Source of the DNA: Acidobacteriota bacterium
GTDB lineage: Bacteria > Bacillota > Syntrophomonadia > Syntrophomonadales > DTU052
Assembly: GCA_050259595.1 (NCBI GenBank)
Contig: JBLNAX010000068.1
Span: forward strand, 3,905 to 67,904
DNA: 64,000 bases
Direction: 5' to 3'
The position numbers and the translations under genes are program-made. The notes under the pieces were generated by a model that had not been told where the DNA came from, searched no databases, and saw nothing but the letters and a program-made list of their open reading frames with translations. This document shows, piece after piece, positions 24,342 to 43,058 of this stretch; within the stretch, counting starts at the first letter, position 1; each line of letters begins with the position of its first letter.

Positions 24342-24416
24342 GCCGATGTGGCTCAGTGGCAGAGCAGCTGATTCGTAATCAGCAGGTCGGCGGTTCAAAT
24401 CCGCCCATCGGCTCCA
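24342..24416 (+). tRNA. tRNA-Thr(CGT)
   Basis: Cloverleaf GCCGATG/CATCGGC acceptor, TGGCTCAGTGGCAGAGCA D-arm, GCTGA-TTCGTAA-TCAGC anticodon arm (anticodon CGT), GGTTCAAATCC T-arm, encoded CCA. Confidence 0.9.
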
Positions 24417-24427
24417 GTAAAATAGGG

Positions 24428-24457
24428 CCTTCCGAGACTTCGGAGGGTTTTTATTTT
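24428..24457 (+). terminator. rho-independent terminator after tRNA-Thr
   Basis: CCTTCCGAG-ACT-TCGGAGGG followed by TTTTTATTTT. Confidence 0.65.
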
Positions 24458-24517
24458 GGGGTTTGTACCCCAACCGTACCCCAACCGGAAATAAAAATTG
24501 CATTTACTGCAATTAAA

Positions 24518-25669
24518 TCATTTTTTGGTGCTTTCATTTTCATCTGGGATCTTGAGAACTGAACTGAGCCTCTCAACAGCTCGTTTTTTAAGCTTCTCTT
24601 TGACATGGCCATATGTATTTGCAGTGGTGCTCAGTGAGGCATGGCCCATTAGTTCTTGTATTACGCGCATATCCTCACCAGCTTCTAGAAGCAAAGAAGC
24701 ATAAGAATGGCGCAGCGAGTGGAATGTAATGTCTTTGTATTCCGGGTTTTCCTTTTCCAGCTTTTGAAGTAGAGATTTGAAATGCTTTGAGAGGTATTGG
24801 GGATCTACCATTCTGCCGTCTGGCCATGCAAAGACGAACCCTTCGTCAATATAACCGGTGCGGCATAGTTCCTTTTCTGCATCCTGACGGTTCTTATGAT
24901 TCTCTAAGATTGCCACAATATCTGAGGTTAGTGGAACAATCCGTTCGCCTTTTTTAGTCTTTGGGAGTTGATAAATAATCTTTGTCTTGCTAGGTGACTC
25001 AGGATCGTCATTAATGACTCTGCTAGCAGCTTCTCTGATTTCAATAATACCTTTATCCAAATTCACAAACTGCCAGCGGAGAGCTGCCAGCTCACCTACA
25101 CGTAGACCCGAACCAAGATCAAATAAGATCGCAGTGTACCATGGATCTTCTTGAATAGACTTAAGTAATTTGAAAGTCTGTTCAGAATCAAGGAAAGCCG
25201 CTTCCTTCTTTACTGGCCTCGGAGGAGTAGTTGCTAAGCAGGGGTTGCGGTATATTCTATCTTCTAAAACAGCCTGTTTAAGGGCTCCACTAAGTAGAAC
25301 ATGAAGGTACTCAATACTCCGAGCGGATAATGGCTGGCCTGTCTTCTTTGTTTTCTGTGTTTTCTTAGTGTTATAAAACCGTTGGATGTCAGAAGGTTGA
25401 AGATCTTTGAGCGGTATCTTATCGAAGTACGGTCTAATATGTATGCGGATTAATTGTTCGTAACTTCTACTGGTAGTAGGCCTAACATTGGTCTTATATG
25501 TTTCAAACCAGTATTGGACCCAAGCTCCAGCTGAAATTTGGCTAAAATCATGCATGACACCTTGATTATGCTGGTGTAACAAAGTCGTCATTTGTTTTTT
25601 CAACTCAGTTTTACTTTTGTTGTAAAGGGATTTGCGTCTTAGGGCGCCCGTTTCAGCATCTCGAAGCAT
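24518..25669 (-). CDS. tyrosine-type site-specific integrase
   Basis: C-terminal catalytic region [11 protein letters not shown] ... [40 protein letters not shown] (R, HxxR, H, Y), with an N-terminal SAM-like domain. It lies adjacent to tRNA-Thr. Confidence 0.9.
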
Positions 25670-30392: not shown

Positions 30393-30463
30393 ATTCACCA
30401 ACTCTTTAATGTTTTTATTTTATTATATCATAATTTCAGGATTTGAATACATGATAAGCATAC

Positions 30464-31109: not shown

Positions 31110-31113
31110 TCTT

Positions 31114-31536: not shown

Positions 31537-32948
31537 TCCGTTACAAATTACGAATGACGGGCCGCCAATATGCGGCCCTGTCTCAACATTTGCTTGCCAA
31601 TGATGGTTGTGAATCTGTCGCTTTGGCTCTGTGCGGAGTTGGTGAAAGAAACGAAAATGGAATAATTGAACGTGTAGTAATGATTCGCGAAGTTATTCCA
31701 GTGCCGATTGATCAATGCATGGTACGTACCGCCGATTGTGTTAAGTGGTCAACCGAAATATTAAACGGTTTATTATCGAGAATAGACAAAGAAAATGCCA
31801 TCCTCTTAAAACTTCATAGCCATCGTTCAGAAACTGATGCCTTTTCAGAAACTGATGATATTTCTGACAATGAATTGGTTGACTCGGTGTCGGGGTATTT
31901 GCAGAGAGATTTTTGTTGTATAAGTGCCATCATGACAGAGAGTCGCCGCATAAAAGCACGAGTGCTTCAGGTGGATGGTAAGGCAATACCGGTAGAATCC
32001 GTCCTCATCGTCGGTGATGATATTCATTTTTGGCTTTACCAAGACATGAATGGGAATCAGGGTTTGGGCCAATTATCCAAACGAACAACGCAGACATTGG
32101 GTAGACATACGACACAAATCCTTTCTAGGCTAAGAATCGGCATAGTTGGCACTTCTGGAACCGGAAGTCCCACGGTTGAAATGTTAAACCGGTTAGGAGT
32201 AGGATATCTTGTTTTAGTGGATGGAGACATTATTAATCATCTTAATGTCGGGCGAATCTATAACTCAACTGTATGGGATGCAGATGAAGGTAGATACAAA
32301 GTTCACATTCTAAAACAAAAAATGCAACAAAACGGACTTCCCACAATTGTTGAGGCTTTTCCCAAAGACCTTTATCATGCGTCTGTTATCCGGGCCCTAG
32401 CACAATGTGATATTATTTTTGGATGCATGGATTCTGTTGATGGTAGGCATCTATTAAATAGGCTTTGTGTTTATTATTCAATACCATATTTCGATATTGG
32501 CATTGGCCTTGATGCAGATGGGCAAGGAGGGGTAGAACTCGTAAGTGGTACTGTTCACTATATCCAAGCTGACGGCTCATCACTTATGAGTCGGGGAGTA
32601 TACAATCCGGAAATGCTCCTTGCTAGTATTACTCAAAGACAAAACCCCGAGTTTTATGAAGATCAGCGACAACGGGGATATTTACGTGGTTCTAATGAGG
32701 ACCGTCCGGCTGTGATTAGTGTAAATACCATGATGGCAAGTATCGCTGTGAACGATTTTCTATCTAGAATACATCCTATTCGATACAGCGACAACAAGGA
32801 CGTTGCCCAGATTAGTTTAAACTGGAGTGGCATGTATATTCAAACTTTTTCAGCTAATGATTTCTCGACTGATCGATTATTTTTCAGAGACGTTGGTCGA
32901 GGCGATGTGCATCCATTGTTGCTTGAATACAATTTAGAAGGAGATTGA
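31533..32948 (+). CDS. JAB/MPN metalloprotease fused to ThiF/E1-like adenylating enzyme
   Basis: The ATGA start overlaps the E2 stop. N-terminal JAMM motif: E (CESVALALCG) ... HSHRSETDAFSETD (HxHx7SxxD). The C-terminal half has a Rossmann E1 signature RIGIVGTSGTGSPTVEMLNRLGVGYLVLVDGDIINHLNVGRIY and FGCMDSVDGRHLLNRLC. Confidence 0.8.
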   Translation: MIRYKLRMTGRQYAALSQHLLANDGCESVALALCGVGERNENGIIERVVMIREVIPVPIDQCMVRTADCVKWSTEILNGLLSRIDKENAILLKLHSHRSETDAFSETDDISDNELVDSVSGYLQRDFCCISAIMTESRRIKARVLQVDGKAIPVESVLIVGDDIHFWLYQDMNGNQGLGQLSKRTTQTLGRHTTQILSRLRIGIVGTSGTGSPTVEMLNRLGVGYLVLVDGDIINHLNVGRIYNSTVWDADEGRYKVHILKQKMQQNGLPTIVEAFPKDLYHASVIRALAQCDIIFGCMDSVDGRHLLNRLCVYYSIPYFDIGIGLDADGQGGVELVSGTVHYIQADGSSLMSRGVYNPEMLLASITQRQNPEFYEDQRQRGYLRGSNEDRPAVISVNTMMASIAVNDFLSRIHPIRYSDNKDVAQISLNWSGMYIQTFSANDFSTDRLFFRDVGRGDVHPLLLEYNLEGD

Positions 32949-33002
32949 AAATGCTTCAACGACTTCATCAACTGTGGCAAGAAGTACTTGGGCTTTTCTT
33001 CG

Positions 33003-33662
33003 TTAAGTACAGGCGCTTCCGCTTTGTATCGTGCGAGGATATCCCTGATAAGTTAGAAGAGCGTGCGCTTTGACTAACTTATAAAAAGTTGTAGGTTTAA
33101 GATTTAATTCATGCATTGCCAGTCTTGCAGTAATATTGCCTTCTTTCCACTTATAATAGACCTTCTCAAAATCACTTGGAAATTCAGCTTTGGGCCTGCC
33201 GAGATGTTTACCTTGAGCCTTGGCTATAGCAATTCCTTCAGCTTGTCGTTGTTTAATGTTCTCCCTCTCTTGTTGTGCCACATAAGCCAATACTTGAAGG
33301 ATTAAATCACTAATAAACGTTCCTAAAAGGTCTTTATGAAGCGTAGTATCAAGAAGTGACATATCCAATACTCTGATATCAGCTTTGGTATCCTGGGTAA
33401 TCTCCTGCCATTCATTGATTATTTCTCTGTAGTTTCGGCCTAGTCTATCAATAGACTTAATGATTAACAGATCGCCTTCACGCAAAGCATTCTTGAGAAT
33501 TTGGTATTGTGGGCGATTAAAATCTTTGCCGCTTTGCTTATCTAGAAGGATGTACCTTTCATCTACTCCTGCATCTACCATTGCTTGGATTTGCCTAGCC
33601 TCATTCTGGTCTTTATCACTAATCCTGCAGTAGCCGTAAGTTCTATTCTGCATTTCGAACAC
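33003..33662 (-). CDS. serine recombinase (resolvase/invertase family)
   Basis: YGYCRISDKDQNEARQ (catalytic Ser), the DLLIIKSIDRLGRN motif, and a C-terminal HTH. Confidence 0.88.
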   Translation of the reverse strand: MFEMQNRTYGYCRISDKDQNEARQIQAMVDAGVDERYILLDKQSGKDFNRPQYQILKNALREGDLLIIKSIDRLGRNYREIINEWQEITQDTKADIRVLDMSLLDTTLHKDLLGTFISDLILQVLAYVAQQERENIKQRQAEGIAIAKAQGKHLGRPKAEFPSDFEKVYYKWKEGNITARLAMHELNLKPTTFYKLVKAHALLTYQGYPRTIQSGSACT

Positions 33663-33866
33663 CCCCTAAGATGCTATACTCTTATTATATCGATGGTGTT
33701 CGTAAAAGTATATATAATTTACGAATATGTACGCTTATTATTTATGGCCTTTACGGTCGCGAATAAGTGTAATTATAGTGGGCATTTGGGATGTTCGCAA
33801 AGGTGTACCTTTATGGTCGTTGTAAGATCTAGTATGTAAAATGAGGATTTATCAAGATAGGGTTAA

Positions 33867-33920
33867 GGCTACCGAACCGTATTATATCTGGTCCGGATCG
33901 CAAGATATGAACTCGGACAT
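33867..33920. repeat. decayed copy of the tRNA-Arg(TCT)/tRNA-Pro(TGG) junction (direct repeat of 34877-34930)
   Basis: GGCTACCGAACCGTATTATATCTGGTCCGGATCGCAAGATATGAACTCGGAC compared with GGCTACCGACCTGTATTTTATCTGGTCCGGGTGGCAAGATTTGAACTCGCAG. About 44 of 54 positions are identical, at an offset of 1010 bp. Confidence 0.7.
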
Positions 33921-34040
33921 CAACGCTACTAGGATTTATTTGTCAGCCATAAAGTAGCCGGTTGCAATTGAATTAATCAAAGTCCATAGAAAACAAAAGC
34001 CGCACCTTGATTAGGTGCGGCGGTGTTGATAATCTTAAAT

Positions 34041-34343
34041 CTATTGATGTTGGGGTAAGAAATCAATTCTAACTCTGGCATCAAGAACCTCCGCAATTCG
34101 GGTTAGGGTTTGCAGGGTGATATTTTGATTACCCTTTTCAATTCTTGCGATTGTTGATTGTTTAGTGCCCAGCGCTTTCGCCAATTGTTCTTGTGTCCAT
34201 CCTTTTTCAATGCGTAAAGCTATGATCTGCCGCGTTATTTGATACTCGGGTTCGCTCTCGGCCCATTCTTTAGCGAATTGCGGGTCTTTAATCAAGTTTT
34301 TCTTAATATAGTTTTTCAAATCACTCATTGGTGTTACCTCCAA
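34041..34343 (-). CDS. XRE-family HTH antitoxin (HigA-like)
   Basis: GWTQEQLAKALGTKQSTIARIEKGNQNITLQTLTRIA helix-turn-helix. It lies directly downstream of the toxin gene with an 8-nt gap. Confidence 0.8.
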   Translation of the reverse strand: MEVTPMSDLKNYIKKNLIKDPQFAKEWAESEPEYQITRQIIALRIEKGWTQEQLAKALGTKQSTIARIEKGNQNITLQTLTRIAEVLDARVRIDFLPQHQ

Positions 34344-34351
34344 ATAGAAGC

Positions 34352-34693
34352 CTATGTATTTGATAAATAGGCTTTAAGTCGTTGTTCCGCTAGTTTCAAT
34401 TCAGCGTCAGGAAGCTTACGTGTTTTCTTAATAAATCCACTTAACAGTAACAGTATTTTACCGGCAACAACTGAGAAGAGGATGCGATATTGATTACCCT
34501 GAAACACGGTTCTTAGTTCCCATATATTTCGACCAATGTTGCTAACTAAGGGAAAACCGAGATCAGGACCAAACTCCTCTAACAAAAGAAGATTTCTCAG
34601 TATTTTAGCCCGAGCCTTAGCGTTTTGAGCATCTAAGAACTCACTAACCGGCTCGTTACGGCCTTCTTGGTAAAATGTTAATTCCCATGCCAT
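34352..34693 (-). CDS. type II toxin, RelE/HigB superfamily (phage Gp49-like)
   Basis: WELTFYQEGRNEPVSEFLD...NIWELRTVFQGNQYRILF...LLLLSGFIKKTRKLPDAELKLAEQR is the typical Gp49/HigB-2 pattern. Confidence 0.8.
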   Translation of the reverse strand: MAWELTFYQEGRNEPVSEFLDAQNAKARAKILRNLLLLEEFGPDLGFPLVSNIGRNIWELRTVFQGNQYRILFSVVAGKILLLLSGFIKKTRKLPDAELKLAEQRLKAYLSNT

Positions 34694-34811
34694 GGTTATA
34701 TTATATCATATATGCTATATTGTCTCCAGATGTACCAATTTGATTCGAGTTCTTGCTGCTCGCGTCACCAATTCGCACTAGTAGGGAAGCAAAGGAGCCG
34801 TTTTTGTATTT

Positions 34812-34888
34812 TGGCAGGCCGGACAGGATTCGAACCTGCATTAGGCAGTTTAGAAGACTGCTGCCTCGATCCATTAGGCTACCGACCT
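34812..34888 (-). tRNA. tRNA-Arg(TCT)
   Basis: Minus-strand cloverleaf with anticodon arm GCAGT-CTTCTAA-ACTGC, T-arm GCAGG-TTCGAAT-CCTGT, and encoded CCA. Confidence 0.8.
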
Positions 34889-34898
34889 GTATTTTATC

Positions 34899-34975
34899 TG
34901 GTCCGGGTGGCAAGATTTGAACTCGCAGTCTCGTGGTCCCAGGCCACGCGGGATACCAAGTTACCCTACACCCGG
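34899..34975 (-). tRNA. tRNA-Pro(TGG), atypical C at position 33
   Basis: Acceptor CGGGTGT.../...CACCCGG-A-CCA. Anticodon arm CGTGG-CCTGGGA-CCACG. The reading is confirmed by the track translation SWSQATR on the plus strand. Confidence 0.75.
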
Positions 34976-34983
34976 AGGAATTA

Positions 34984-35061
34984 TGGTGTCGGAGGCGAGA
35001 GTCGAACTCGCAAAACTGCGGGTTTGAGCCGCATATGTATGCCTGATTCCATCACTCCGAC
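34984..35061 (-). tRNA. tRNA with Leu anticodon CAA but no long variable arm (78 nt)
   Basis: GTCGGAG-TG-ATGGAATCAGGCATACAT-A-TGCGG-CTCAAAC-CCGCA-GTTTT-GCGAG-TTCGACT-CTCGC-CTCCGAC-A-CCA. It has a 3-bp Leu-type D-stem and a 5-nt variable loop. Confidence 0.65.
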
Positions 35062-35062
35062 A

Positions 35063-35147
35063 TGGTAATGGTGGAGAGATTCGAACTCTCATGGCTATGG
35101 CCCCTGGTTTTTAAGACCAGGACGTATACCCGTTCCGTCACACCAGC
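35063..35147 (-). tRNA. tRNA-Leu(TAA)
   Basis: An 85-nt class II tRNA with anticodon arm CTGGT-CTTAAAA-ACCAG and a 13-nt variable arm GGGCCATAGCCAT. There is one 2:71 mismatch in the acceptor stem. Confidence 0.75.
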
Positions 35148-35154
35148 ATAATTA

Positions 35155-35230
35155 TGGAGCCGGTGAGAGGACTTGAACCCCTAATCTACTGATTACAAGT
35201 CAGCCGCTTTTTCCATTGAGCTACACCGGC
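35155..35230 (-). tRNA. tRNA-Thr(TGT)
   Basis: Acceptor GCCGGTG/CACCGGC, anticodon loop CTTGTAA, T-loop TTCAAGT, encoded CCA. Confidence 0.85.
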
Positions 35231-35237
35231 TAAAATA

Positions 35238-35314
35238 TGGTGCGGGAGGGAGGACTTGAACCTCCGATCTACCGGTTCAAAGCCGGTCGCGTTAACCAAT
35301 TACGCTACTCCCGT
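35238..35314 (-). tRNA. tRNA-Gln(TTG)
   Basis: Anticodon arm ACCGG-CTTTGAA-CCGGT and D-arm GCGTAATTGGTTAACGC. The 1:72 pair is weak or mismatched. Confidence 0.8.
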
Positions 35315-35323
35315 ATTTATCAT

Positions 35324-35399
35324 TGGCACGGGGCGAAGGGGTCGAACCTCCAGTCTCCTGGGTCAGAACCAGGCATGTTGCCAATTACACCAGCCCCGT
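35324..35399 (-). tRNA. tRNA-Gln(CTG)
   Basis: Anticodon arm CCTGG-TTCTGAC-CCAGG, an A1:U72 pair, encoded CCA. Confidence 0.8.
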
Positions 35400-35404
35400 A
35401 TTTT

Positions 35405-35480
35405 TGGTGCCCCCAGATGGACTCGAACCATCAACTAACCGGTTATGGGCCGGTAACTCTAACCATTGAGTTATGGGAGC
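35405..35480 (-). tRNA. tRNA(CAT), elongator Met or Ile2 type, atypical C33
   Basis: Acceptor GCTCCCA/TGGGGGC with a G1:C72 pair, so it is not initiator-like. Anticodon arm ACCGG-CCCATAA-CCGGT. The reading is confirmed by the track translation LTGYGPVT. Confidence 0.7.
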
Positions 35481-35484
35481 ATTT

Positions 35485-35562
35485 TGGGGTGACTGACGAG
35501 ACTTGAACTCGTAAAGACCGGGGTCACAGTCCGGCGCGTATACCATTTCCGCCACAGCCACC
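35485..35562 (-). tRNA. tRNA-His(GTG)
   Basis: Anticodon loop CTGTGAC. An encoded extra G(-1) lies opposite C73, the hallmark of bacterial tRNA-His. Confidence 0.88.
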
Positions 35563-35609
35563 GCGTTATTATCTTATCTCAGGGGGAAGATCCTCAAGAG
35601 ATTGTTATC

Positions 35610-35687
35610 TGGCTCCCCGAGCAGGGCTCGATCCTGCGACCCTCCGGTTAACAGCCGGGCGCTACCACCAAACTGAGCTATCGGGGA
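35610..35687 (-). tRNA. tRNA-Asn(GTT)
   Basis: Acceptor TCGGGGA/TCCCCGA, D-arm GCTCAGTTTGGTGGTAGC, anticodon loop CTGTTAA. The T-loop ATCGAGC is atypical. Confidence 0.8.
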
Positions 35688-35691
35688 ATAA

Positions 35692-35769
35692 TGGTGCCTC
35701 CGACAGGGATCGAACCTGTGACCCTTCGATTATCGGTCGAATGCTCTACCAAAACTGAGCTACAGAGGC
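35692..35769 (-). tRNA. tRNA-Ile(GAT), atypical C33
   Basis: Anticodon arm TTCGA-CCGATAA-TCGAA, D-arm GCTCAGTTTTGGTAGAGC, T-loop TTCGATC. Confidence 0.72.
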
Positions 35770-35774
35770 ATTAA

Positions 35775-35850
35775 TGGTGTCCCTGAGAGGACTCGAACCT
35801 CCAACTTACCGGTTAAAAGCCGGTTACTCTGGCCATTGAGTTACAGAGAC
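35775..35850 (-). tRNA. tRNA-Lys(TTT)
   Basis: Anticodon arm ACCGG-CTTTTAA-CCGGT, encoded CCA. Confidence 0.85.
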
Positions 35851-35854
35851 ATAT

Positions 35855-35929
35855 TGGTGCTCCCGGATGGACTTGAACCATCAGCCTCGCGGTTAAGAGC
35901 CGCTTGCTCTGCCATTGAGCCACGGAAGC
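35855..35929 (-). tRNA. tRNA-Lys(CTT)
   Basis: Anticodon loop CTCTTAA, T-arm GATGG-TTCAAGT-CCATC. Confidence 0.82.
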
Positions 35930-35939
35930 AAAACTATCA

Positions 35940-36014
35940 TGGTGCTGCGGGTTGGAATCGAACCAACTACGCCACGGGCTTCAACCGAGCGCTCTACCGG
36001 TGAGCTACCACAGC
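35940..36014 (-). tRNA. tRNA-Phe(GAA)
   Basis: Anticodon loop TTGAAGC with one U:U mismatch in the anticodon stem. D-arm AGCTCACCGGTAGAGC. Confidence 0.78.
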
Positions 36015-36020
36015 ATTATT

Positions 36021-36097
36021 TGGTGGACCTGACAGGACTCGAACCTGCAACCTTCTGCTTGCAAAGCAGTCGTTCTCGCCATTAGAACTACAGGCCC
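36021..36097 (-). tRNA. tRNA-Ala(TGC)
   Basis: Acceptor GGGCCTG with the G3:U70 Ala identity pair. Anticodon loop TTTGCAA. Confidence 0.85.
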
Positions 36098-36100
36098 ACA

Positions 36101-36176
36101 TGGTGCTCCCTGGTGGAATCGAACCACCGGTCTTATGCTTGTAAGGCATCTGCTCTTCTCACTGAGCTAAGGGAGC
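36101..36176 (-). tRNA. tRNA-Val(TAC)
   Basis: Acceptor GCTCCCT/AGGGAGC, anticodon loop CTTACAA, T-arm GGTGG-TTCGATT-CCACC. Confidence 0.85.
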
Positions 36177-36217
36177 CGGATAAATAAGAAGGGGTTGTGA
36201 CTTTAATTCACAACCCC
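36177..36217 (-). terminator. perfect 10-bp hairpin + U-rich tract between the two tRNA blocks
   Basis: GGGGTTGTGA-7 nt-TCACAACCCC. On the minus strand it is followed by TTCTTATTTATCCG, which runs straight into tRNA-Val. Confidence 0.45.
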
Positions 36218-36380
36218 TGGATTGGTCGTATTTTCGGTCACTTTAAGTATTCATGATCGTCTGTTTTGGGCATGTTGAGTTAATACGATAAACGGTTTTA
36301 TCGCTGTATTTCTGAATATTGTGTTCGTAATGCCCAAAGTTTTCACTGATTAATCTCCTATTCTTGTTTAGTATTAAAAC

Positions 36381-36470
36381 TGGCGGAGACGGAAGGACTC
36401 GAACCTTCAAACGCTGTTAACGTCACTGGGTTTCAAAGCCAGGCCCCGCCCCACTGGGGTCAACGTCTCC
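36381..36470 (-). tRNA. tRNA-Ser(TGA)
   Basis: A 90-nt class II tRNA with anticodon loop TTTGAAA, a C:C mismatch closing the stem, a long variable arm and discriminator G. The D-arm is poorly canonical. Confidence 0.65.
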
Positions 36471-36478
36471 TTGATTAA

Positions 36479-36566
36479 TGGAGGAAGAGGAGGGATTCGA
36501 ACCCACGGAACCTCACGGCCCTCCGGTTTTCGAAACCGGCGCATTAATCCTCTCTGCCAATCTTCC
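36479..36566 (-). tRNA. tRNA-Ser(CGA)
   Basis: An 88-nt tRNA with D-arm TGGCAGAGAGGATTAATGC, anticodon arm CCGGT-TTCGAAA-ACCGG and a 16-nt variable arm. There is one T-stem mismatch and one 7:66 mismatch. Confidence 0.72.
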
Positions 36567-36580
36567 TCAATGTTAAGTTC

Positions 36581-36675
36581 TGGCGGAGAGAGTGGGGGTC
36601 GAACCCACGCAGGCTGCTGCTAGCAACCCCTGGTGCCTTTCCAAGACACTCCCTTAGCCTCTTGGGTATCTCTCC
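36581..36675 (-). tRNA. tRNA-Ser(GGA)
   Basis: A 95-nt tRNA with acceptor GGAGAGA/TCTCTCC, anticodon arm GTGTC-TTGGAAA-GGCAC and a very long variable arm. Confidence 0.75.
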
Positions 36676-36682
36676 AAAAACA

Positions 36683-36773
36683 TGGCGGAGGATGTAGGAT
36701 TTGAACCTACGCAGGCGTTACCACCCCTAGCGGTTTAGCAAACCGCCCTCTTCAGCCACTTGAGTAATCCTCC
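36683..36773 (-). tRNA. tRNA-Ser(GCT)
   Basis: A 91-nt tRNA with acceptor GGAGGAT/ATCCTCC, anticodon arm GCGGT-TTGCTAA-ACCGC and a long variable arm. Confidence 0.78.
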
Positions 36774-36780
36774 GTATATT

Positions 36781-36857
36781 TGGTACGGACGAGAGGGGTC
36801 GAACCTCCAAAACTACGGGTCTAAGCCGCATACGTATGCCAGTTCCGTCACGTCCGC
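36781..36857 (-). tRNA. tRNA with Leu anticodon TAG but no long variable arm (77 nt)
   Basis: GCGGACG-TG-ACGGAACTGGCATACGT-A-TGCGG-CTTAGAC-CCGTA-GTTTT-GGAGG-TTCGACC-CCTCT-CGTCCGT-A-CCA. The reading is confirmed by the track translation WYGREGSNLQNYGSKPHTYASSVTSA. Confidence 0.65.
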
Positions 36858-36870
36858 ACGTTTTCAATTT

Positions 36871-36945
36871 TGGTTGCGGGCCCAGGAGTTGAACCAGGTT
36901 AATCCGAGTTATGAGCCCGGCGAAGATGCCGACCTTCCGCCCGCA
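36871..36945 (-). tRNA. initiator-like tRNA-Met(CAT)
   Basis: Anticodon arm CCGGG-CTCATAA-CTCGG with a G29-G31 run. The D-stem has an A11:U24 pair, and the 3' end is ...CCCGCAACCA as in tRNA-fMet. Position 1:72 is a U:A pair, and the T-stem has a U:U mismatch. Confidence 0.7.
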
Positions 36946-36946
36946 A

Positions 36947-37022
36947 TGGCGACCCCGACCGGATTTGAACCGGCGATCTCTGGCGTGACAAGCCAGCATT
37001 CTAGCCCCTGAACTACGGAGTC
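36947..37022 (-). tRNA. tRNA-Asp(GTC)
   Basis: Anticodon arm CTGGC-TTGTCAC-GCCAG, discriminator G, encoded CCA. Confidence 0.85.
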
Positions 37023-37029
37023 ATATTTA

Positions 37030-37116
37030 TGGAGGCGTGGACGGGGTTTGAACCCGCGCGGGCGCTATGCCCATCAGCTTGAAAGGCTGACCTCTGTACC
37101 ATTCGAGTACCACGCC
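37030..37116 (-). tRNA. class II-shaped tRNA (87 nt, long variable arm) carrying Glu anticodon TTC
   Basis: GGCGTGG-TA-CTCGAATGGTACAGAG-G-TCAGC-CTTTCAA-GCTGA-TGGGCATAGCGCCCGC-GCGGG-TTCAAAC-CCCGT-CCACGCC-T-CCA. It has a 3-bp D-stem, a 16-nt variable arm and discriminator U. Confidence 0.6.
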
Positions 37117-37129
37117 ATGCTGTTATATA

Positions 37130-37217
37130 TGGTGCCACCGGAGGGAATCGCACCCACTCGGGTCAATTGACGACGGATTTACAGTCCGCCCCGTCTGCTT
37201 TAACGGTCTACGATGGC
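37130..37217 (-). tRNA. tRNA-Tyr(GTA)
   Basis: An 88-nt class II tRNA with anticodon arm GCGGA-CTGTAAA-TCCGT, a 15-nt variable arm and discriminator A. The T-loop TGCGATT is atypical. Confidence 0.78.
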
Positions 37218-37226
37218 ATATTCATT

Positions 37227-37304
37227 TGGAGAACGGGGTGGGATTCGACCCCACGAGTCCATGGTTTTGCAGACCAGGCCATTAGGCCTCTCTGGCACCC
37301 GTTC
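37227..37304 (-). tRNA. tRNA-Cys(GCA)
   Basis: Anticodon loop CTGCAAA and discriminator U73 (a Cys identity element). Acceptor GAACGGG/CCCGTTC. The T-loop GTCGAAT is atypical. Confidence 0.75.
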
Positions 37305-37312
37305 ATATATTT

Positions 37313-37386
37313 TGGAGCGAGCAGTCAGACTCGAACTGACATCTCTGGCTTGGAAGGCCAGGGCACACCCTTTATACCATACCCGC
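37313..37386 (-). tRNA. tRNA-Gly(TCC)
   Basis: A 74-nt tRNA with anticodon arm CTGGC-CTTCCAA-GCCAG, a 4-nt variable loop and discriminator U73. Confidence 0.82.
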
Positions 37387-37396
37387 TTAATTATCA

Positions 37397-37475
37397 TGGC
37401 ACCGGTGGAGAGATTCGAACTCCCAAAACCTACTGGTTCGTAGCCAGCCGCTCTCTCCAGTTGAGCTACACCGGC
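37397..37475 (-). tRNA. tRNA-Arg(ACG)
   Basis: Anticodon arm GCTGG-CTACGAA-CCAGT, D-arm GCTCAACTGGAGAGAGC and a 7-nt variable loop. Confidence 0.8.
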
Positions 37476-37480
37476 ATTAT

Positions 37481-37571
37481 TGGCACGGGTGGAAGGAGTT
37501 GAACCCTCACAAGCCTTATAGGGGCCTTCGGATTTGGAGTCCGCTGCTCTGCCAGTTGGAGCTACACCCGT
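37481..37571 (-). tRNA. tRNA-Trp(CCA) carrying a 19-nt extra arm in the variable region (91 nt)
   Basis: ACGGGTG-TA-GCTCCAACTGGCAGAGC-A-GCGGA-CTCCAAA-TCCGA-[AGGCC-CCTATAA-GGCTT-GT]-GAGGG-TTCAACT-CCTTC-CACCCGT-G-CCA. The reading is confirmed by the minus-strand track translation CTGVAPTGRAADSKSEGPYKACEGSTPSTRA. Confidence 0.65.
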
Positions 37572-37580
37572 GCATTCGTA

Positions 37581-37618
37581 TATAAAAATAAAACCGAGTG
37601 CGATGTACACACTCGGTT
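37581..37618 (-). terminator. hairpin + U-tract just upstream of the first tRNA of the array
   Basis: AACCGAGTG-9 nt-CACTCGGTT. On the minus strand it is followed by TTATTTTTATA, ending about 10 nt before the tRNA-Trp 5' end. Confidence 0.45.
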
Positions 37619-37937
37619 CGAAAAATCTTCTACTTCGGTTGTTAATCACACGTTACGTTATTCGCTTCCCCCTGTTTGATCCCAGCATTGTATATTGTTT
37701 CGGATCGAATTGGGCGCAGTCTATCGAGCCAGAGAACAGACGCTCTGACCAGCGAATACTGAGACTATTTTGTTGGCTATTCAATAAGTGCCTCAACGCT
37801 GCACCCTCCTCTTGTATACAATATACATTAGCATAATAAAACCAAAACAATACAATGTCAACCACTTTTTAGATATTTGTCCTATATTATCATTTTCAAT
37901 TCAGTTCGGAAAGTCTGTAGAACTGTAGGTGATCGGT

Positions 37938-38951
37938 TCACCATAAATGCGTCCAGAATTCTGGCTCGTATGGCTTAAAATCAATGGCTTTATAGACGAA
38001 GGCATTATCTTTGTATTGATATGTAATGGTAAATGTACCGACATAATTGTCTGTATAATGGGTGCTGGCTTCTATCTTACAAATAATCTCGCCGTTTTTA
38101 TTAACAGCGAACTCATTCACTTCACTTGTAAACTGTTTATCAATATCCATAATTGCACCAGGAGGACAATATTTCTTCATCGGGTAACGCATTGTGTGGT
38201 TGTTGATATGAACCGTAATGTGCTTTTTGCTTAGAGAATTGGAACTGTGCCCAGCCCAAAGCTTGAAAGGGTCGTCAATAGGGATCTCCTTACCTGAGTC
38301 AGGATTCATAATGTGCGCCACATATAATGAACAGCCTGTTCCAGAACCTACAGGGACAAACACAGCAACCTCGGGTTTTTTATCCTGATCCCAATCATTA
38401 ACAGCCAGTTCGGGCATCACACCTCTGGGCAGCCGCGGAATATCAAAATATACTGAGCATGAAGTAGACTTGCTTGTTAGTTTAACCCCTTGATAATAAT
38501 ATTTAAGTGAATCAGCAGTTAATTTAAATCCATCGTCTTTTGAACTTGCTAGAATGTTAGTTTCTGTGGCTAGGGTAGCTGGGTCAAGCCAATATGAAAC
38601 CCTGCTATCATCCTTTCCCTGTGGCGGAGGATATAGGACAACCGCCAAAGGCGGCGTATGGGCAGAAGTATACCCTTCTTGCCAAATCTCGGGCATTTTA
38701 TTAGGATCAGTACTGGTCTTCCACGGAAGCTTACGTAAACGGCCATGTCCCTCAAGGATTAAATCGGTGTAGTAGTTGTTCTCAAGATTGGTTGCATATA
38801 ACGATACGCCTTCATATTGGGCTAAAAGTTTTTTAAAGGAGGAATTTGCAGGCCCTTCAACTTGTTTTTGTGAGTGAGAATCTGAACAGCCTCCGATGAG
38901 AAGAACAAGGATAGATAAAAGCAAGAAGCCGGTAAGATTGAGCTTTCGCAT
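37938..38951 (-). CDS. lipoprotein, function unknown
   Basis: An internal ATG gives MRKLNLTGFLLLSILVLLIGGCSDS, a signal peptide with lipobox L-I-G-G-C. The track ORF extends to 38981. Confidence 0.7.
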   Translation of the reverse strand: MRKLNLTGFLLLSILVLLIGGCSDSHSQKQVEGPANSSFKKLLAQYEGVSLYATNLENNYYTDLILEGHGRLRKLPWKTSTDPNKMPEIWQEGYTSAHTPPLAVVLYPPPQGKDDSRVSYWLDPATLATETNILASSKDDGFKLTADSLKYYYQGVKLTSKSTSCSVYFDIPRLPRGVMPELAVNDWDQDKKPEVAVFVPVGSGTGCSLYVAHIMNPDSGKEIPIDDPFKLWAGHSSNSLSKKHITVHINNHTMRYPMKKYCPPGAIMDIDKQFTSEVNEFAVNKNGEIICKIEASTHYTDNYVGTFTITYQYKDNAFVYKAIDFKPYEPEFWTHLW

Positions 38952-38965
38952 GGCGCCTCCAATAT

Positions 38966-39394
38966 CTAACAACGATTCCACTTGTCATCTTCCATGATTC
39001 TATCAATGATATGATTATCTGCCCAAACAGCTGTTACCTCCAGCCCTTCACAGTCAGCTTTGGTTGATGGCTTTATTTCCCCGCGATAATATACAGAGTA
39101 CTCACCTGATATAGCATCTACAATACATGAAGGTGGCGGCCACTCCTCATCTTCATTGAGAAATGGGCGGTGATCAACTTTTGGCCAATTCCCCGACTTG
39201 AGTACATAATCGTAAACTCCAACCATGAACTGGTATTCCTCGCAGTTAGGTAGGTCTTCCACTGATCCTCCGAGGTGCTTGTAGATTGCAATGGTTGCAT
39301 CCCGAAAAATTCTTCCAAATGCCCATTGCCCATTTGGAAGTGGAATAGCATATACATCTCCAATCTTCTTTCGCTTTCCGAGTTTTCTAGTCAT
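38966..39394 (-). CDS. putative polymorphic-toxin immunity protein (Imm26-like)
   Basis: The N-terminus KRKKIGDVYAIPLPNGQWAFGRIF...IAIYK resembles the Imm26 family as I remember it. It is a small cytoplasmic protein. Confidence 0.4.
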   Translation of the reverse strand: MTRKLGKRKKIGDVYAIPLPNGQWAFGRIFRDATIAIYKHLGGSVEDLPNCEEYQFMVGVYDYVLKSGNWPKVDHRPFLNEDEEWPPPSCIVDAISGEYSVYYRGEIKPSTKADCEGLEVTAVWADNHIIDRIMEDDKWNRC

Positions 39395-39656
39395 GTTAAA
39401 GATAACACCTCAATGCTTCTTCTTATCCTTGGAATGTTTTCTCTACAAGGATAGAAATTCCTACTAGGAAAGGAGATCGTAGTCCTTAATCTGTCATTCC
39501 TGGAACCCAATTCGTATCAATCCCGTCCAATAAATGGGTAAATCACTTATCGCATTTTGGAGTTTAGATAAATCTCTAAGTGTATATGCAGCATGAATGG
39601 CCCGCAATTGGGCCTTTTTTATTTGTTTAGATGGACTTCTGGATGGGAGAACAATT

Positions 39657-40274
39657 ATGAGAAATATTGTTGAAGATGAAAGATATCAAAAAGAACGAAA
39701 AGAAATGGAGAGCTACTTTACTCCAAAATATTTGGTCCCGAATGATACCGAGACCATTGAATCTCCTTATGGTCGCTACTCGCTGACTATTGAGTATTAT
39801 AAACGTGATTTAGATGACCATTATAATAAGTATTCTAAAGGCATAATCAGAGATGGAGACAGGGAGTTAGCAGTAATTAAAAGAAACTATCTGCATTTCC
39901 CATATTGTTGGATTCAAACCGCTGATAAACAGGATTACTTAATTTGTGGAGAGGATTATCAGGGACTTTCAATTGTTAATTTGAAAACTGGTGAAGTACT
40001 CCACTATGTACCCGAAGCTGCCTATGAAGGTAGAGGTTTTTGTTGGGTTGTGATACACCATTTAAATGGCAACGATATAATCGCAGTCGAAGGATGTTAT
40101 TGGGGAAGTGAATACGAAATAGTGTTCTTTGACATCTCAGAAATTATGAAGCTCCCAAATAGAGAGATCTGTAGGGTGTCAGGTCATGGAGATGTAGTTG
40201 GTTGGGTGAATCCAAGAGAATTCGCCTACTATGATGAAGATAAAAACTATAAAACTGTGAAGCTAGACGATTGA
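39657..40274 (+). CDS. hypothetical protein
   Basis: ATG lies 7 nt after GGGAGA; the track ORF starts at 39597. No motif was recognised. Confidence 0.5.
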   Translation: MRNIVEDERYQKERKEMESYFTPKYLVPNDTETIESPYGRYSLTIEYYKRDLDDHYNKYSKGIIRDGDRELAVIKRNYLHFPYCWIQTADKQDYLICGEDYQGLSIVNLKTGEVLHYVPEAAYEGRGFCWVVIHHLNGNDIIAVEGCYWGSEYEIVFFDISEIMKLPNREICRVSGHGDVVGWVNPREFAYYDEDKNYKTVKLDD

Positions 40275-40283
40275 GGATAATGC

Positions 40284-41531
40284 ATGGCTAAACTAGATGA
40301 TTTCAATAACATAAACATCCCGGTGCGGTTTTTCCGGAACCCAGACGTCAAATTTGAGAACAATGCTCTGGATGAACTCAAGAGTTTGCTCAATATATCT
40401 AGTACAATTGAGCACTTAAAAGAGTCAGATAAGGGTTTCTTTTCAAATATTGATGCTTGTGTTGAGGAGGTGGCCATTACCCCCGATTTTCATAAAGGAG
40501 CAGGAATTCCTATTGGGACTGTTATGCTGACCCAGGGATTGATTATACCGCAAGCCATCGGAAACGATGTTAATTGTGGGATGAGACTCTATGTAACTGA
40601 CCTTAATGAAGAAGCGATAAGATCAGTACTGCCGTATTTGGAGAATACAATTCGCCACGTCTTCTTTGAAGGTGGACAGAACATTCCAATGACTCGTATT
40701 CAGAGAGAAGCACTTTTAAAAGAAGGTCTTTTAGGGCTTCTTGAGACATCAAATATAGGCCAGAAAAAAGGCTTATGGCAATATTACCAGCGTGAGCAGC
40801 AGGAGTCCGAGATTGAGAATGTAAGCAGTATGGGGTCAATGATTGCTGATTCAGTGATTGGTCTGGACGATTTCTTAGGGATTAACGAGCTCTCGTACGA
40901 TGGGCAGATTGGTTCAATTGGAGGCGGAAATCACTTTGTTGAAGTCCAGACTGTCTCAAAGATATTGGATAGCCAGGTTGCTAATGCCTGGGGCTTGAAG
41001 AAAGATCAGATAGTGATAATGATTCACACTGGTTCGGTAATGATAGGACACCACAGTGGTTCATATTTTAAGGATATTGTTAAGAGTATCTACCCTAAGA
41101 ATCTTAAACATCCCGATAATGGTATATACATATTGCCGGATTCTGAGCAGTTCATTAATCAGTGGGATATGTTTTGGAACCTGCTGTCAAACGCTGCTAA
41201 CTTTGCGTTTGGTAACCGCCTATTCCTTGGTCTAATGCTTAAAAGGGCATTAGTTGAGACTATTGGGGAGTTTGATTGCAGGTTACTATATGATTCCCCC
41301 CATAACCTGGTTTGGAAAGAGAATATAGATGGCAAGAGCTATTATCTGCACCGGAAGGGTGCCTGCCCGGCTAGGAGCATGAGCCAAATGACAGGAACCA
41401 AGTTCGAGTATTATGGGGAACCTGTATTCCTGCCTGGGTCGATGGGATCATCCAGTTTTGTACTCGCAGGTCTTGGTAATAGGCAGAGCCTTTTTAGTGC
41501 TAGTCATGGTGCCGGGAACCTATCTTGTTGA
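40284..41531 (+). pseudogene. rtcB: RtcB-family RNA ligase, apparently C-terminally truncated
   Basis: RtcB motifs are present: PDFHKGAGIPIGTV, NDVNCGMRL, GGGNHFVEVQ, HTGS, HNLVW, LPGSMGSSSFVL and SHGAGN. The ORF stops 4 codons after HGAG, whereas family members normally continue for about 60-80 aa. Confidence 0.6.
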
Positions 41532-41803
41532 GATGGATAAATTTTAGCAAGAGCAGAGACTGTCTTGGGTATGAAGCAACAATTAAACACTATGAAAAGA
41601 TGCTACAAACTTGCCATCCTACCAATGTTGGACATGTTGAACAACTACTAGCTAACGCTAAAAACCATTCAGGGGCAACACTTCTAGATATAATAATCGA
41701 AATAATCGTGGATACGGACAATTCCGGGCATGACTGCAAGTTGATAACTGATGAGTAAAGGCATTTAACGTCCCATAAGTAAAGGTTGATGTCAAGATCA
41801 ACC

Positions 41804-42013
41804 TTACAACATCATCATCTCCATTTTGTGTCTTGCCTTCTCCTGGTCCGGATTAGTGTAAAGCAAATTGGTATGGATGTTGCTGTGACCGGCCTGGTTG
41901 GCTACTTCATGGATGCTGAAGACCTTTTCAATGGCGTTGGTGCAGAAGAAGTGGTGCAACTGGTGGGGAGCTTTACAACAAATGAAACATCGAGCTGGCC
42001 TGACGGGTCGCAT
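41804..42013 (-). pseudogene. remnant of a tyrosine recombinase C-terminus
   Basis: LHHFFCTNAIEKVFSIHEVANQAGHSNIHTNLLYT parallels the integrase HxxR...GH...Y box (compare [38 protein letters not shown] at 24518-25669). There is no N-terminal domain. Confidence 0.5.
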
Positions 42014-42095
42014 TTAGCGCCTTTTCAAATTCTCTTTCTGTTATGGCTCTGCATATCTCTGGTAAGATTGAATAAAGGGGAGAGGGGGATGCCCA

Positions 42096-43058
42096 ATGGC
42101 AAAAAGTGATAATATGCTGGCGATCCTACGGATGCTTAATTCAGGATCAAAAATAACTGCGAAGCAAATAGCTGAAAAATTAGAGATAAATATACGGACC
42201 GTTTATCGTTATATTGATTCGCTGTGCGCAAGCGGTGTACCGATTATATCAGATACAGGACAGAACGGCGGATATAGTTTACTGAACAACTTTATTCATG
42301 CGCCTTTATTTTTTGATATTGAAGAACAAAAAGCATTGCTTCATGCAGCCGTATTTGCCAACGAAGCAGGATACCCTTTCAGTGAGGCGCTAAACAATGC
42401 GACACAAAAACTGAAAATGTATTCTAACCGGGAACAGGAAAGTATCCTCAAACGCCACTTAGCCGGTTTCGAAGTGATAAACCTTGATATTGCCCCGTCT
42501 GTTAAGTTGACATTGGAAGAACTTGAGCGAGCTATAGCCAACGAATGTTCTGTAGAAATTGAATACCGTACACGCCATGAAGAAAAACCCCAGTCAAGAT
42601 TGATTGACCCTTATGGAATGTTCTTTTGGAACAATAAATGGTATACAGTTGGATTTTGCCATCTTCGAAATGATATAAGAAGCTTTCGAGCCGAACGGAT
42701 TATTCGGATACAACGGACGCAAATGACGTTTAAAAGGCCGGAAGCCTTTTCTGCCAGGAAATATTTTATGCAAAATCTTTTACCGGATTCTAAAAGTGAA
42801 GCTGGTGTGGTGTCATTAATTATTAGTGGCCGATCAGAAGCTCTGGACGATTTGTGCGTTCATTGGTTCTTAGGACATTATTTGAAAGAACGTTCATCTA
42901 ATCAAGCAGTTTTTTTGCTTGACGAAAGAGCACTTCATGCATATGTACCTTCTTTTCTTCTATCTTATGGAGAGGCTTTTCAAGTGATAGAACCGCAGAG
43001 TTTAAAGAAAAAGCTTGTTTCTGTTGCATCGAGATTACTGGAATATTATCAATTATGA
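42096..43058 (+). CDS. YafY-family transcriptional regulator (HTH + WYL domain)
   Basis: N-terminal MLAILRMLNSGSKITAKQIAEKLEINIRTVYRYIDSL. The central WYL-type segment is DPYGMFFWNNKWYTVGFCHLRNDIRSFRAERI. Confidence 0.85.
   Translation: MAKSDNMLAILRMLNSGSKITAKQIAEKLEINIRTVYRYIDSLCASGVPIISDTGQNGGYSLLNNFIHAPLFFDIEEQKALLHAAVFANEAGYPFSEALNNATQKLKMYSNREQESILKRHLAGFEVINLDIAPSVKLTLEELERAIANECSVEIEYRTRHEEKPQSRLIDPYGMFFWNNKWYTVGFCHLRNDIRSFRAERIIRIQRTQMTFKRPEAFSARKYFMQNLLPDSKSEAGVVSLIISGRSEALDDLCVHWFLGHYLKERSSNQAVFLLDERALHAYVPSFLLSYGEAFQVIEPQSLKKKLVSVASRLLEYYQL

Follow-up and report, generated by a model that had tools for sequence, protein, structure and literature searches.

Long variable arms belong, in the textbook classification of tRNAs, to tRNA-Leu, tRNA-Ser, tRNA-Tyr (in bacteria) and tRNA-Sec. 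The reviews that we consulted name only Leu, Ser, Tyr, Sec and allo-type tRNAs as carriers of such arms, and our full-text literature searches found no description of a tRNA-Trp with a long variable arm; the family that we report here, tRNA-Trp genes with an arm that starts with AGGCC, seems to be undescribed. In bacteria, Trp identity depends on G73 as a major determinant, on the anticodon and on the first acceptor pair A1:U72, while in B. subtilis the acceptor pairs G2:C71, G3:C70, G4:C69 and G5:C68 are used as well (PMC9976931). UGA reading has been described for tRNA-Trp(CCA) with an anticodon stem of 4 bp, in which the top of the stem is unpaired, and the work includes experiments in E. 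coli (PMC13092985). A tRNA array unit has been defined as at least 20 tRNA genes at a density of at least 2 per kb (PMC4758250). Long, horizontally transferred arrays often have rtcB nearby (PMC4758250, PMC8421152), and arrays of the L-array type are often silent in standard conditions (PMC8421152).

The window (i.e. the whole stretch of 64,000 nucleotides that was analysed) contains such an array, with 29 tRNA genes in 2,760 bp (Table 1), and the 5'-most of these genes encodes the tRNA-Trp that is the subject of this analysis. Left of the probable island border, the genes argC, J, B, D, F, G and H form a bacterial arginine operon; its ArgG product shares ~75% identity with proteins assigned by name to Syntrophomonadaceae, Peptococcaceae and other Bacillota. 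From the tRNA-Thr(CGT) gene onward follow genes for the integrase, an HTH-M78 regulator, a resolvase and a Gp49/HigB-type toxin, then the array itself, and then genes for an Imm26 protein, RtcB, a WYL regulator and a DJ-1 protein. The GC content is ~40% around the array versus 45–52% in the arg operon, and TGA serves as the stop codon in none of 14 genes before the island versus nine of 15 genes within it. Such a composition fits an array that was horizontally acquired and resides on an integrated island in the chromosome of what appears to be an uncultivated Bacillota bacterium, since tRNA-Thr and the integrase gene stand at the border and both the GC content and the stop-codon usage change there. 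An att repeat of the tRNA-Thr 3' end was looked for and not found. The RtcB gene, 2.7 kb from tRNA-Trp, codes for 415 aa versus about 499 aa in its relatives and lacks ~84 C-terminal residues. Its closest relatives (72–73% identity) are encoded in AAA/DUF2201 operons with no tRNA nearby, and we therefore rejected RtcB as a route to related arrays. The protein collection searched contains no homologue of a 347-aa ORF that lies upstream of the array. The predicted promoter and the terminator-like hairpin (Table 1) flank an ORF of 51 codons, read by eye, whose GGAGG ribosome-binding site is strong, and the consensus scan detected no promoter between that hairpin and the tRNA-Trp gene. The array also holds tRNA-Leu genes without a long arm.

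Table 1. Features of the tRNA-Trp gene, its array and the surrounding island (window coordinates; CM, covariance model; MFE, minimum free energy).
Feature	Position	Strand	Description	Source
tRNA-Trp(CCA) gene	37481..37571	-	91 nt, CCA end encoded; 5'-most gene of the array	ARAGORN, Rfam
Variable region	37509..37527	-	AGGCC-CCUAUAA-GGCUU-GU, 19 nt	MFE fold, ARAGORN drawing, CM insert placement, near-identical arm of relatives
Hairpin within variable region	37511-37527	-	5-bp stem (or 4 bp plus a terminal A:U pair), 7-nt loop	
Anticodon arm	37528..37544	-	GCGGA-CUCCAAA-UCCGA; anticodon CCA at 37535-37537	ARAGORN, CM
D arm	37546..37562	-	GCUC/GAGC, 4-bp stem, 9-nt loop CAACUGGCA	ARAGORN, CM
T arm and 3' acceptor strand	37481..37508	-	GAGGG-UUCAACU-CCUUC; G73 at 37484, CCA at 37481-37483	
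tRNA-Glu(UUC)	37030..37116	-	87 nt, 13-nt insert at the same variable-region site, 3-bp D stem, U73; second unorthodox long-arm tRNA of the array	
tRNA array	34812..37571	-	29 genes, 20 of 20 amino acids, CCA encoded in all, ~10.5 genes per kb	ARAGORN, Rfam
Terminator-like hairpin	37591..37619	-	12-bp stem and U tract; ends 20 nt upstream of the tRNA-Trp 5' end	Consensus scan, sequence, fold
Sigma-70-type promoter	37833..37861	-	TTGACA-17-TATTAT, 11 of 12, near-consensus	Consensus scan
tRNA-Thr(CGT) and tyrosine integrase	24342..25669		tRNA-Thr 24342-24416 (+), integrase 24518-25669 (-); probable left border of the island with the array	

The tRNA-Trp gene, whose minus-strand sequence (window 37481-37571) is ACGGGUGUAGCUCCAACUGGCAGAGCAGCGGACUCCAAAUCCGAAGGCCCCUAUAAGGCUUGUGAGGGUUCAACUCCUUCCACCCGUGCCA, is matched by the Rfam tRNA model RF00005 from end to end (model positions 1–71) with 48.0 bits (E = 3e-9; gathering score, 29), a score that is lower than those of most neighbouring array genes. 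Together with the ARAGORN call, this bears out the claim of an earlier note, prepared from the bare letters of the DNA, that a tRNA-Trp gene lies here; the A1:U72 pair, G73, the D stem GCTC/GAGC and the loop CUCCAAA that it listed are likewise all present in the sequence. That note had also described a 19-nt insert with a 5-bp stem and a 7-nt loop, and this holds: the minimum-free-energy fold is a cloverleaf with such a hairpin. The covariance-model alignment, a check that the note itself had proposed, places a 16-nt insertion between the anticodon stem and the T stem, i.e. in the variable region, which is also the site of the long arm in class II tRNAs. Two peculiarities had been overlooked. 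One is a G27·A43 mismatch, which leaves an anticodon stem of 4 bp (the top pair of this stem is non-standard in the covariance-model alignment), and the other is an additional C in the D loop, inserted between C13 and A14. All of U8, A14, G18G19, T54-Psi55-C56 and A58 are found in the sequence, with A14 shifted by the one inserted C. The gene contains the anticodon CCA, G73, A1:U72, G3:C70, G4:C69 and G5:C68 of the Trp identity set, with C:G at 2:71, and the 5' halves of this gene and of its relative L075 (L numbers denote our loci) match ordinary tRNA-Trp genes at 80–93%. The folding energy of the whole molecule is unremarkable for its composition (z-score -0.59) and gives no signal that the arm exceeds chance; that it does so follows from homologues in which a near-identical arm sits on diverged tRNA bodies.

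These homologues were detected in metagenome contigs with a scan pattern in which the D arm, the T loop, the CUCCAAA loop and a long gap were the only fixed elements, the insert itself being left unspecified. Five tRNA-Trp genes of 89–91 nt (L054, L056, L060, L073 and L075) have the variable region AGGCC-CUUAUAA-GGCU(A/U)-GU, nearly identical to that of the window, so that the search for the insertion elsewhere, which the earlier note had advised for related genomes, found near-identical ones in metagenome contigs. Two farther relatives (L059 and L074) share the AGGCCC start and have a differing loop or a 6-bp stem. We refer to all eight genes, selected by arm similarity and the AGGCC motif, as the family, and to the window gene with its five closest relatives as the core. 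L073 and L075 are syntenic, with a flanking protein that is 67–71% identical, and both have kept the arm; the L075 gene is moreover identical in contigs of two independent public runs, one from a sediment and one from a seawater metagenome. The L075 contig looks phage-like, with tRNA genes scattered among small orphan ORFs, and the L060 contig encodes a PHROG-1221 protein, while L059 adjoins amt-glnK and may be a cellular locus. No protein family is common to the window's island and the family contigs, and among the latter the only synteny is that between L073 and L075. ORF lengths in the family contigs give no signal of TGA recoding, these contigs being too short to tell. No member of the family was found in IMG/VR viral contigs with a dedicated pattern, nor by a pattern scan of ~185,000 GTDB species representatives. 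Cultured phages yielded only generic tRNA matches and no close relative of the window gene, and no long-arm match when queried with the L075 gene; plasmids likewise showed generic tRNA similarity to the window gene and nothing closer.

In the alignment of the eight genes, 89.8% of the cells are paired, versus 75% after shuffling and 34–54% when the partners were slid by 1–3 columns. Pairs that changed on both sides are frequent in the canonical helices (five of seven in the acceptor stem, four of five in the anticodon stem, two of five in the T stem) and absent from the extra arm (none of five). One such double change involves the window gene itself, which has A31:U39 where the other members have U31:A39. 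The compensatory changes in the canonical helices imply that the genes of the family are under structural selection of the tRNA type and are not debris. The extra arm behaves differently: among the six core genes the mean pairwise identity is 0.88 in the variable region versus 0.56 in the acceptor stem, and the 5' strand (A)GGCC is invariant and without compensatory change, an invariance that is partly built in, as the family was picked by that motif. Its helix is unpaired at one position at least in L056, L073 and L059. Thus, as judged from the alignment, selection is evident for the canonical cloverleaf, whereas the extra arm is conserved by sequence and not by covariation. The purine27·A43 mismatch and the 9-nt D loop occur in all six core members, and five of the six have an additional nucleotide after position 13, which is U in L054, L056 and L073 (where it can pair with A21) and C in the window gene and L075. 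The window gene departs from the family consensus by C for U at loop position 2, by C2:G71 and by C·A at the extra D-arm position. In these sequences three features travel together that would all surround the hinge of the folded tRNA: the extra arm, the unpaired top of the anticodon stem and the enlarged D loop.

The earlier note had read the insert as a possible second anticodon arm, with UAU of the extra loop as a decoder of the Ile codon AUA. [quoted passage not shown] UAU does stand at loop positions 3–5, and the family consensus C-U-UAU-A-A resembles an anticodon loop (C32/U33/A37/A38). In the window, however, the loop CCUAUAA carries C in place of the U33 that is almost universal in anticodon loops, and if the extra arm is taken as the anticodon arm, the alternative cloverleaf is left with GU as its only variable loop, and position 26 has to accommodate an arm of 17 nt. 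With G73, the discriminator is of the Trp type and not the Ile-type A73, and the triplet is not conserved, the same loop positions being occupied by UAC in L073 and CGC in L059, while the loop of L074 has only 5 nt. Besides, an arm in the variable region of an L-shaped tRNA is not known to reach the decoding centre. Because of the C at "33" and the 2-nt variable loop of the alternative fold, the AUA-decoder reading is not supported, and we give it practically no chance of being correct. The earlier note also remarked that no other AUA decoder is evident in the array; the array does contain two tRNAs with a CAU anticodon (35405-35480 and 36871-36945), either of which could in principle be a lysidine-type tRNA-Ile2. 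As to its origin, it is possible that the arm arose by duplication of the anticodon arm; in a hand comparison the two share six of 18 positions, with no detectable sequence similarity. Literal duplications of the anticodon arm do exist in tRNA-Trp genes, namely in L053 and L072.

Other explanations deserve consideration too. The gene might be a decaying, non-functional copy in an array that is a silent passenger, in which case the insert and the other oddities would be neutral damage. The terminator-like hairpin directly upstream, the truncation of the neighbouring RtcB, the G·A mismatch together with the additional D-loop nucleotide and the Rfam score below that of most neighbours would all agree with decay, as would the precedent of the Anabaena array, where three of 26 genes are pseudogenes (PMC8421152). 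Yet the arm, purine27·A43 and the enlarged D loop are common to diverged relatives, the canonical stems of these relatives change by compensation (A31:U39 of the window included), and the universal tertiary nucleotides are intact except for the register of A14; we regard decay as unlikely. Lower still is the probability that the insert is an intervening sequence, excised and re-ligated (e.g. by RtcB) to give a tRNA of 72–76 nt, a variant of the processing substrate envisaged in the earlier note. The insert is a discrete hairpin and an RtcB gene is close by, but this RtcB lacks its C-terminal end, its closest relatives are not found beside tRNA arrays, and the site is exactly where mature tRNAs tolerate long variable arms. 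No bulge-helix-bulge motif is apparent by eye, and Rfam detected no intron family; the insert lies in the variable region rather than at 37/38, and its 16–19 nt are too few for a group I intron. To our knowledge, no bacterial endonuclease acts at such a variable-region site. Splicing of the insert appears very improbable, and nothing that we found supports a processing substrate.

Two further alternatives accept the arm as part of a functional molecule. The seryl-tRNA synthetase (SerRS) recognizes the size of the long arm and G73, and not the anticodon (PMC7609411, PMC9976931), and G73 is present in seven of the eight family members, hence a long-armed tRNA-Trp could be a substrate of SerRS that delivers Ser, alone or along with Trp, at UGG, much as nematode nev-tRNAs or bacterial allo-tRNAs do. 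We find such a blurring of identity quite unlikely: the body is Trp-like and keeps the Trp determinants, its D arm is of class I and unlike that of the array's tRNA-Ser genes, where a 3-bp stem (in Ser-UGA, 4 bp that include an internal mismatch) is combined with a loop of 10–11 nt, the extra arm comprises only 4–5 bp and has an unusual 7-nt loop, and L054 has A73. Similarly low is our estimate for a role outside translation, in which the arm would be a handle or a decoy that binds a modification enzyme, a toxin RNase or a mobile-element factor, and would either mark the tRNA-Trp or soak up an anticodon nuclease. Such a role would accord with an arm that is conserved in sequence and not by covariation, with its anticodon-loop-like consensus C-U-N-N-N-A-A and with the HigB/Gp49-type toxin gene that flanks the array, and a role of array tRNAs as "sponges" that take up toxin RNases has been proposed in the Anabaena study (PMC8421152). 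Nevertheless, no partner emerged, the island and the family contigs have no protein family in common, and a 16-mer of the arm has 15 matches in viral contigs, which is roughly the chance expectation. Three of these 15 matches fall within one unknown structured phage RNA. We considered the hairpin as a portable module and rejected the idea, as further members of this structured RNA have a different, covarying hairpin; since the hairpin covaries away in these members, we take the match for a coincidence.

In our reading, the tRNA-Trp of the window is neither a broken gene nor the carrier of a second anticodon. We consider it probable that it is a tRNA-Trp(CCA) with an acquired long variable arm, i.e. 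a class II-like, five-armed tRNA (a reading that the earlier note had listed among its options and that agrees with the conservation of the arm across the tRNA-Trp relatives), and that it belongs to a small family of tRNAs from the arrays of mobile elements. The array would be transcribed as a polycistron, from which tRNA-Trp would be excised by RNase P and by 3' trimming to the encoded CCA. Judging from its position, the hairpin would be retained in the mature tRNA and, like the variable arms of tRNA-Leu, tRNA-Ser and tRNA-Tyr, project from the hinge that joins the D, anticodon and T arms. Charging with Trp by the host tryptophanyl-tRNA synthetase, and reading of UGG, are to be expected because the body keeps the bacterial Trp identity set. 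The purine27·A43 mismatch, by reducing the anticodon stem to 4 bp, could in addition permit some read-through of UGA, which is plausible for the window tRNA by analogy with the 4-bp-stem tRNA-Trp mentioned above. The conservation of the arm by sequence rather than by covariation suggests that it makes a specific contact, either a tertiary one or one with a protein. Several observations count against the five-armed tRNA-Trp as we picture it: a strong terminator-like hairpin precedes the gene and no promoter was detected after that hairpin, comparable arrays are often silent in standard conditions, the window gene departs from the family consensus, the helix of the extra arm lacks compensatory changes and is not fully paired in three members, and the D arm is of class I, without the class II architecture that normally orients a long arm. 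The family is also small, with eight genes chosen by the likeness of their arms.

A bolder version of the five-armed tRNA is conceivable, although we hold it to be unlikely: the extra arm and the unpaired 27·43 may act jointly at the hinge, as a device of the mobile element that serves either efficient reading of UGA as Trp or a dual Trp/Ser identity, the latter through recognition of the arm and G73 by SerRS. UGA reading would be tolerable in this host, since the core genes sampled end only in TAA or TAG. If this were true, the genetic code would be bent deliberately, by a tRNA that travels on the island and on the related phages. With an arm placed beside an unpaired 27·43 and with the SerRS determinant G73, the AGGCC family offers a test case both for the tuning of decoding by the hinge and for the ways in which synthetases avoid tRNAs with a long arm or make use of them, and it may be useful as a scaffold in orthogonal tRNA engineering. 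On a broader scale, an AGGCC-arm tRNA-Trp, a long-arm tRNA-Glu, arm-less tRNA-Leu genes and an unrelated long-arm tRNA-Trp (see below) suggest that crossings of the boundary between class I and class II have recurred in the tRNA arrays of mobile elements.

Like the tRNA array units or "L-arrays" (PMC4758250, PMC8421152), the array of the window lies in a region of foreign composition with an integrase and rtcB nearby. With the Anabaena trn operon it shares the tRNA-Leu genes that lack a long arm, and this is the only common trait: the host is a member of Bacillota and not a cyanobacterium, and the Anabaena array contains no tRNA-Trp. We accordingly rejected the Anabaena operon as an orthologue, its tRNA identity of 60–70% being at the background level. 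As in the class II tRNAs (Leu, Ser, Tyr, Sec), a stem-loop of more than 10 nt stands between the anticodon and T arms of an otherwise normal 7/5 cloverleaf, and the 19-nt variable region, with its 5 bp and 7-nt loop, exceeds the 10 nt from which a stem-loop in this place counts as class II. Unlike any of them, the window gene has the anticodon and the identity set of Trp, an amino acid whose tRNAs are of class I everywhere they have been described. Its D arm has a 4-bp stem and a 9-nt loop rather than the 3-bp stem and enlarged loop of class II, and most Ser, Leu and Tyr genes of the array itself, as well as its tRNA-Glu(UUC), have a 3-bp D stem with a loop of 10–11 nt. Because the D arm does not fit, the window tRNA is not a full member of class II. 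[quoted passage not shown]

The nematode nev-tRNAs and the bacterial allo-tRNAs resemble the window tRNA in that they combine a long arm with the anticodon of a class I amino acid. However, they have bodies of the Leu or Ser type with a changed anticodon and are charged by LeuRS or SerRS, while the window tRNA has a Trp-type body that gained an arm; because of this body it is neither a nev- nor an allo-tRNA. [quoted passage not shown] It differs from the tRNA described there in that the mismatch of the window tRNA adjoins an inserted arm at the hinge.

The nearest parallel in architecture comes from tRNA-Trp genes of 86–88 nt in viral contigs, in Collinsella and in a few other assemblies (L001, L033 and others), whose arm GGCG-GUAA-CGCC exemplifies a 4-bp stem closed by a tetraloop (GUAA, GAAA or UUUU). 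Like the window gene, they combine CCA and G73 with a hairpin in the variable region and reside in tRNA arrays of mobile elements, but their arm is unrelated, their anticodon stem has 5 bp (with G27·U43) and their D loop has the normal 8 nt. Further tRNA-Trp genes with a long variable region were found in GTDB genomes, one of 81 nt in an array of Marine bacterium AO1-C and one of 85 nt in an alphaproteobacterial MAG. To judge by its sequence, the arm of the 86–88-nt genes appears to be of independent origin; long arms would then have arisen independently in tRNA-Trp, and this architecture is evidently tolerated.

The window gene for tRNA-Trp(CCA), with its extra hairpin arm, is not the only unorthodox member of the 29-gene array. 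At the variable-region site where the tRNA-Trp has its extra arm, the tRNA-Glu(UUC) carries an inserted hairpin of 13 nt (GGGC-AUAGC-GCCC); its D stem has 3 bp and its discriminator is U73. Glu joins Trp as an amino acid served in the array by a long-arm tRNA of unorthodox type. In one tRNA "Met"(CAU), position 33 is C rather than U. Because its body nearly matches that of the neighbouring tRNA-Lys(UUU) (window 35775-35850, minus strand), the sequence suggests an anticodon-shifted paralogue, which may serve either as a Met tRNA or as a lysidine-type Ile2 tRNA.

Coordinates of features in the window and in the comparison loci (L-numbers; fetched from viral, genome-assembly, metagenome or other sequences)
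Feature	Location	Strand	Size or remark
tRNA-Glu(UUC), long-arm	window 37030-37116	-	87 nt
tRNA-Leu(CAA), tRNA-Leu(UAG)	window 34984-35061, 36781-36857	-	77-78 nt
tRNA "Met"(CAU)	window 35405-35480	-	anticodon loop CCCAUAA
RtcB	window 40284-41758	+	ends at 415 aa
Very large ORF	window 47012-61924	+	4,970 aa
Very large ORF	window 6124-12768	+	2,214 aa
Metagenomic tRNA-Trp, exact tandem anticodon-arm duplication	L053 737-834; L072 5683-5780		
Metagenomic tRNA-Trp, exact tandem T-arm duplication	L071 393-487		
Over-long tRNA, ARAGORN call "Pyl(cta)"	L004 2425-2517		93 nt
Over-long tRNA-Asn(GUU), metagenomic array	L065 3318-3409		92 nt
Over-long tRNA-Arg(GCG), metagenomic array	L069 1470-1561		92 nt
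Long-arm tRNA-Trp, viral contigs	L001, L002, L007, L013, L015-L017, L020, L021, L024, L025, L030, L032		86-88 nt
Long-arm tRNA-Trp, Collinsella and other genome assemblies	L033, L036, L037, L041, L043-L049		86-88 nt
Conserved RNA-like element	L118 8190-8300	-	~90 nt
Conserved RNA-like element	L119 1472-1582; L125 4080-4190		~90 nt
Conserved RNA-like element, further copy	L133 3290-3400	-	~90 nt
Conserved RNA-like element, further copy	L134 2206-2316		~90 nt

Duplicated arms and over-long tRNAs were also found elsewhere. The tandem duplications in three metagenomic tRNA-Trp genes could be real or assembly artefacts; those of the anticodon arm represent one possible route to an extra arm of anticodon-arm shape. 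The over-long tRNA of L004 has an extra arm of 6 bp with a 7-nt loop (CUGUUAA), and its position is occupied in the related contigs L022 and L027 by a plain tRNA-Asn(GUU); the L004 gene probably encodes a tRNA-Asn that has gained an arm. The long-arm tRNA-Trp of viral contigs and genome assemblies, a group unrelated to the window gene, is invariably the final gene of a conserved array of 10-11 tRNAs (Gln-Met-...-Arg-Cys-Trp), and these arrays belong to phage-like elements.

A conserved RNA-like element was detected at five loci; in L118 and L125 it lies in phage head modules, between portal-side genes and a scaffold-like gene. Two hairpins are enclosed by a helix that shows covariation (CCGC/GCGG, CUAC/GUAG, CCAC/GUGG), GUGACAGCCGG is invariant, and Rfam searches with L119 and L125 (E up to 0.01) returned no match. 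In the window itself, the smaller ORFs next to the two very large ones (613-2775, 3020-5725 and 44423-46975) match Ig-domain phage structural families, the scan having covered these smaller neighbours.

The region preceding the tRNA-Trp (window 37572-37861, minus strand) contains, from 5' to 3', a promoter close to the consensus, an ORF of 51 codons (MRHLLNSQQNSLSIRW...) that has a GGAGG site, and a terminator-like hairpin with a 12-bp stem, 20 nt from the tRNA. The array is interrupted for 204 nt between tRNA-Ser(UGA) and tRNA-Val, and this gap holds a second terminator-like hairpin (36190-36218, minus strand). Rfam searches revealed no riboswitch or T-box upstream of the tRNA-Trp or in this gap. 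On the other side of a Gp49/HigB toxin-antitoxin cassette, a 50-nt stretch (33866-33915) shows 88% identity to the tRNA-Arg(UCU)/tRNA-Pro junction at 34876-34925, and looks like the remnant of a longer or rearranged array.

The island (24518-43058) has a lower GC content than the arg-operon/Ig-protein part of the window (1-23644), and TGA serves as the stop codon in 9 of its 15 genes, versus none of 14 in the latter. Its RtcB gene stops directly after the SHGAGN motif with TGA, followed two codons on by TAA. Since the product is shorter than its relatives (~499 aa) and no frame was found to continue the protein, the gene is probably a pseudogene. Whereas RtcB relatives reside in AAA-ATPase/DUF2201 operons, sometimes with an RF-1-domain protein, the window RtcB lacks such an operon.

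Short variable regions also occur in the array: the tRNA-Cys(GCA) (37227-37304) has a short variable loop and a D arm resembling that of class II tRNAs, and the tRNA-Leu(CAA) and tRNA-Leu(UAG) combine Leu-type D arms with the absence of the long variable arm. In the array on the delta plasmid of Anabaena PCC 7120 (L052 1554-2090), all four tRNA-Leu genes are likewise short.
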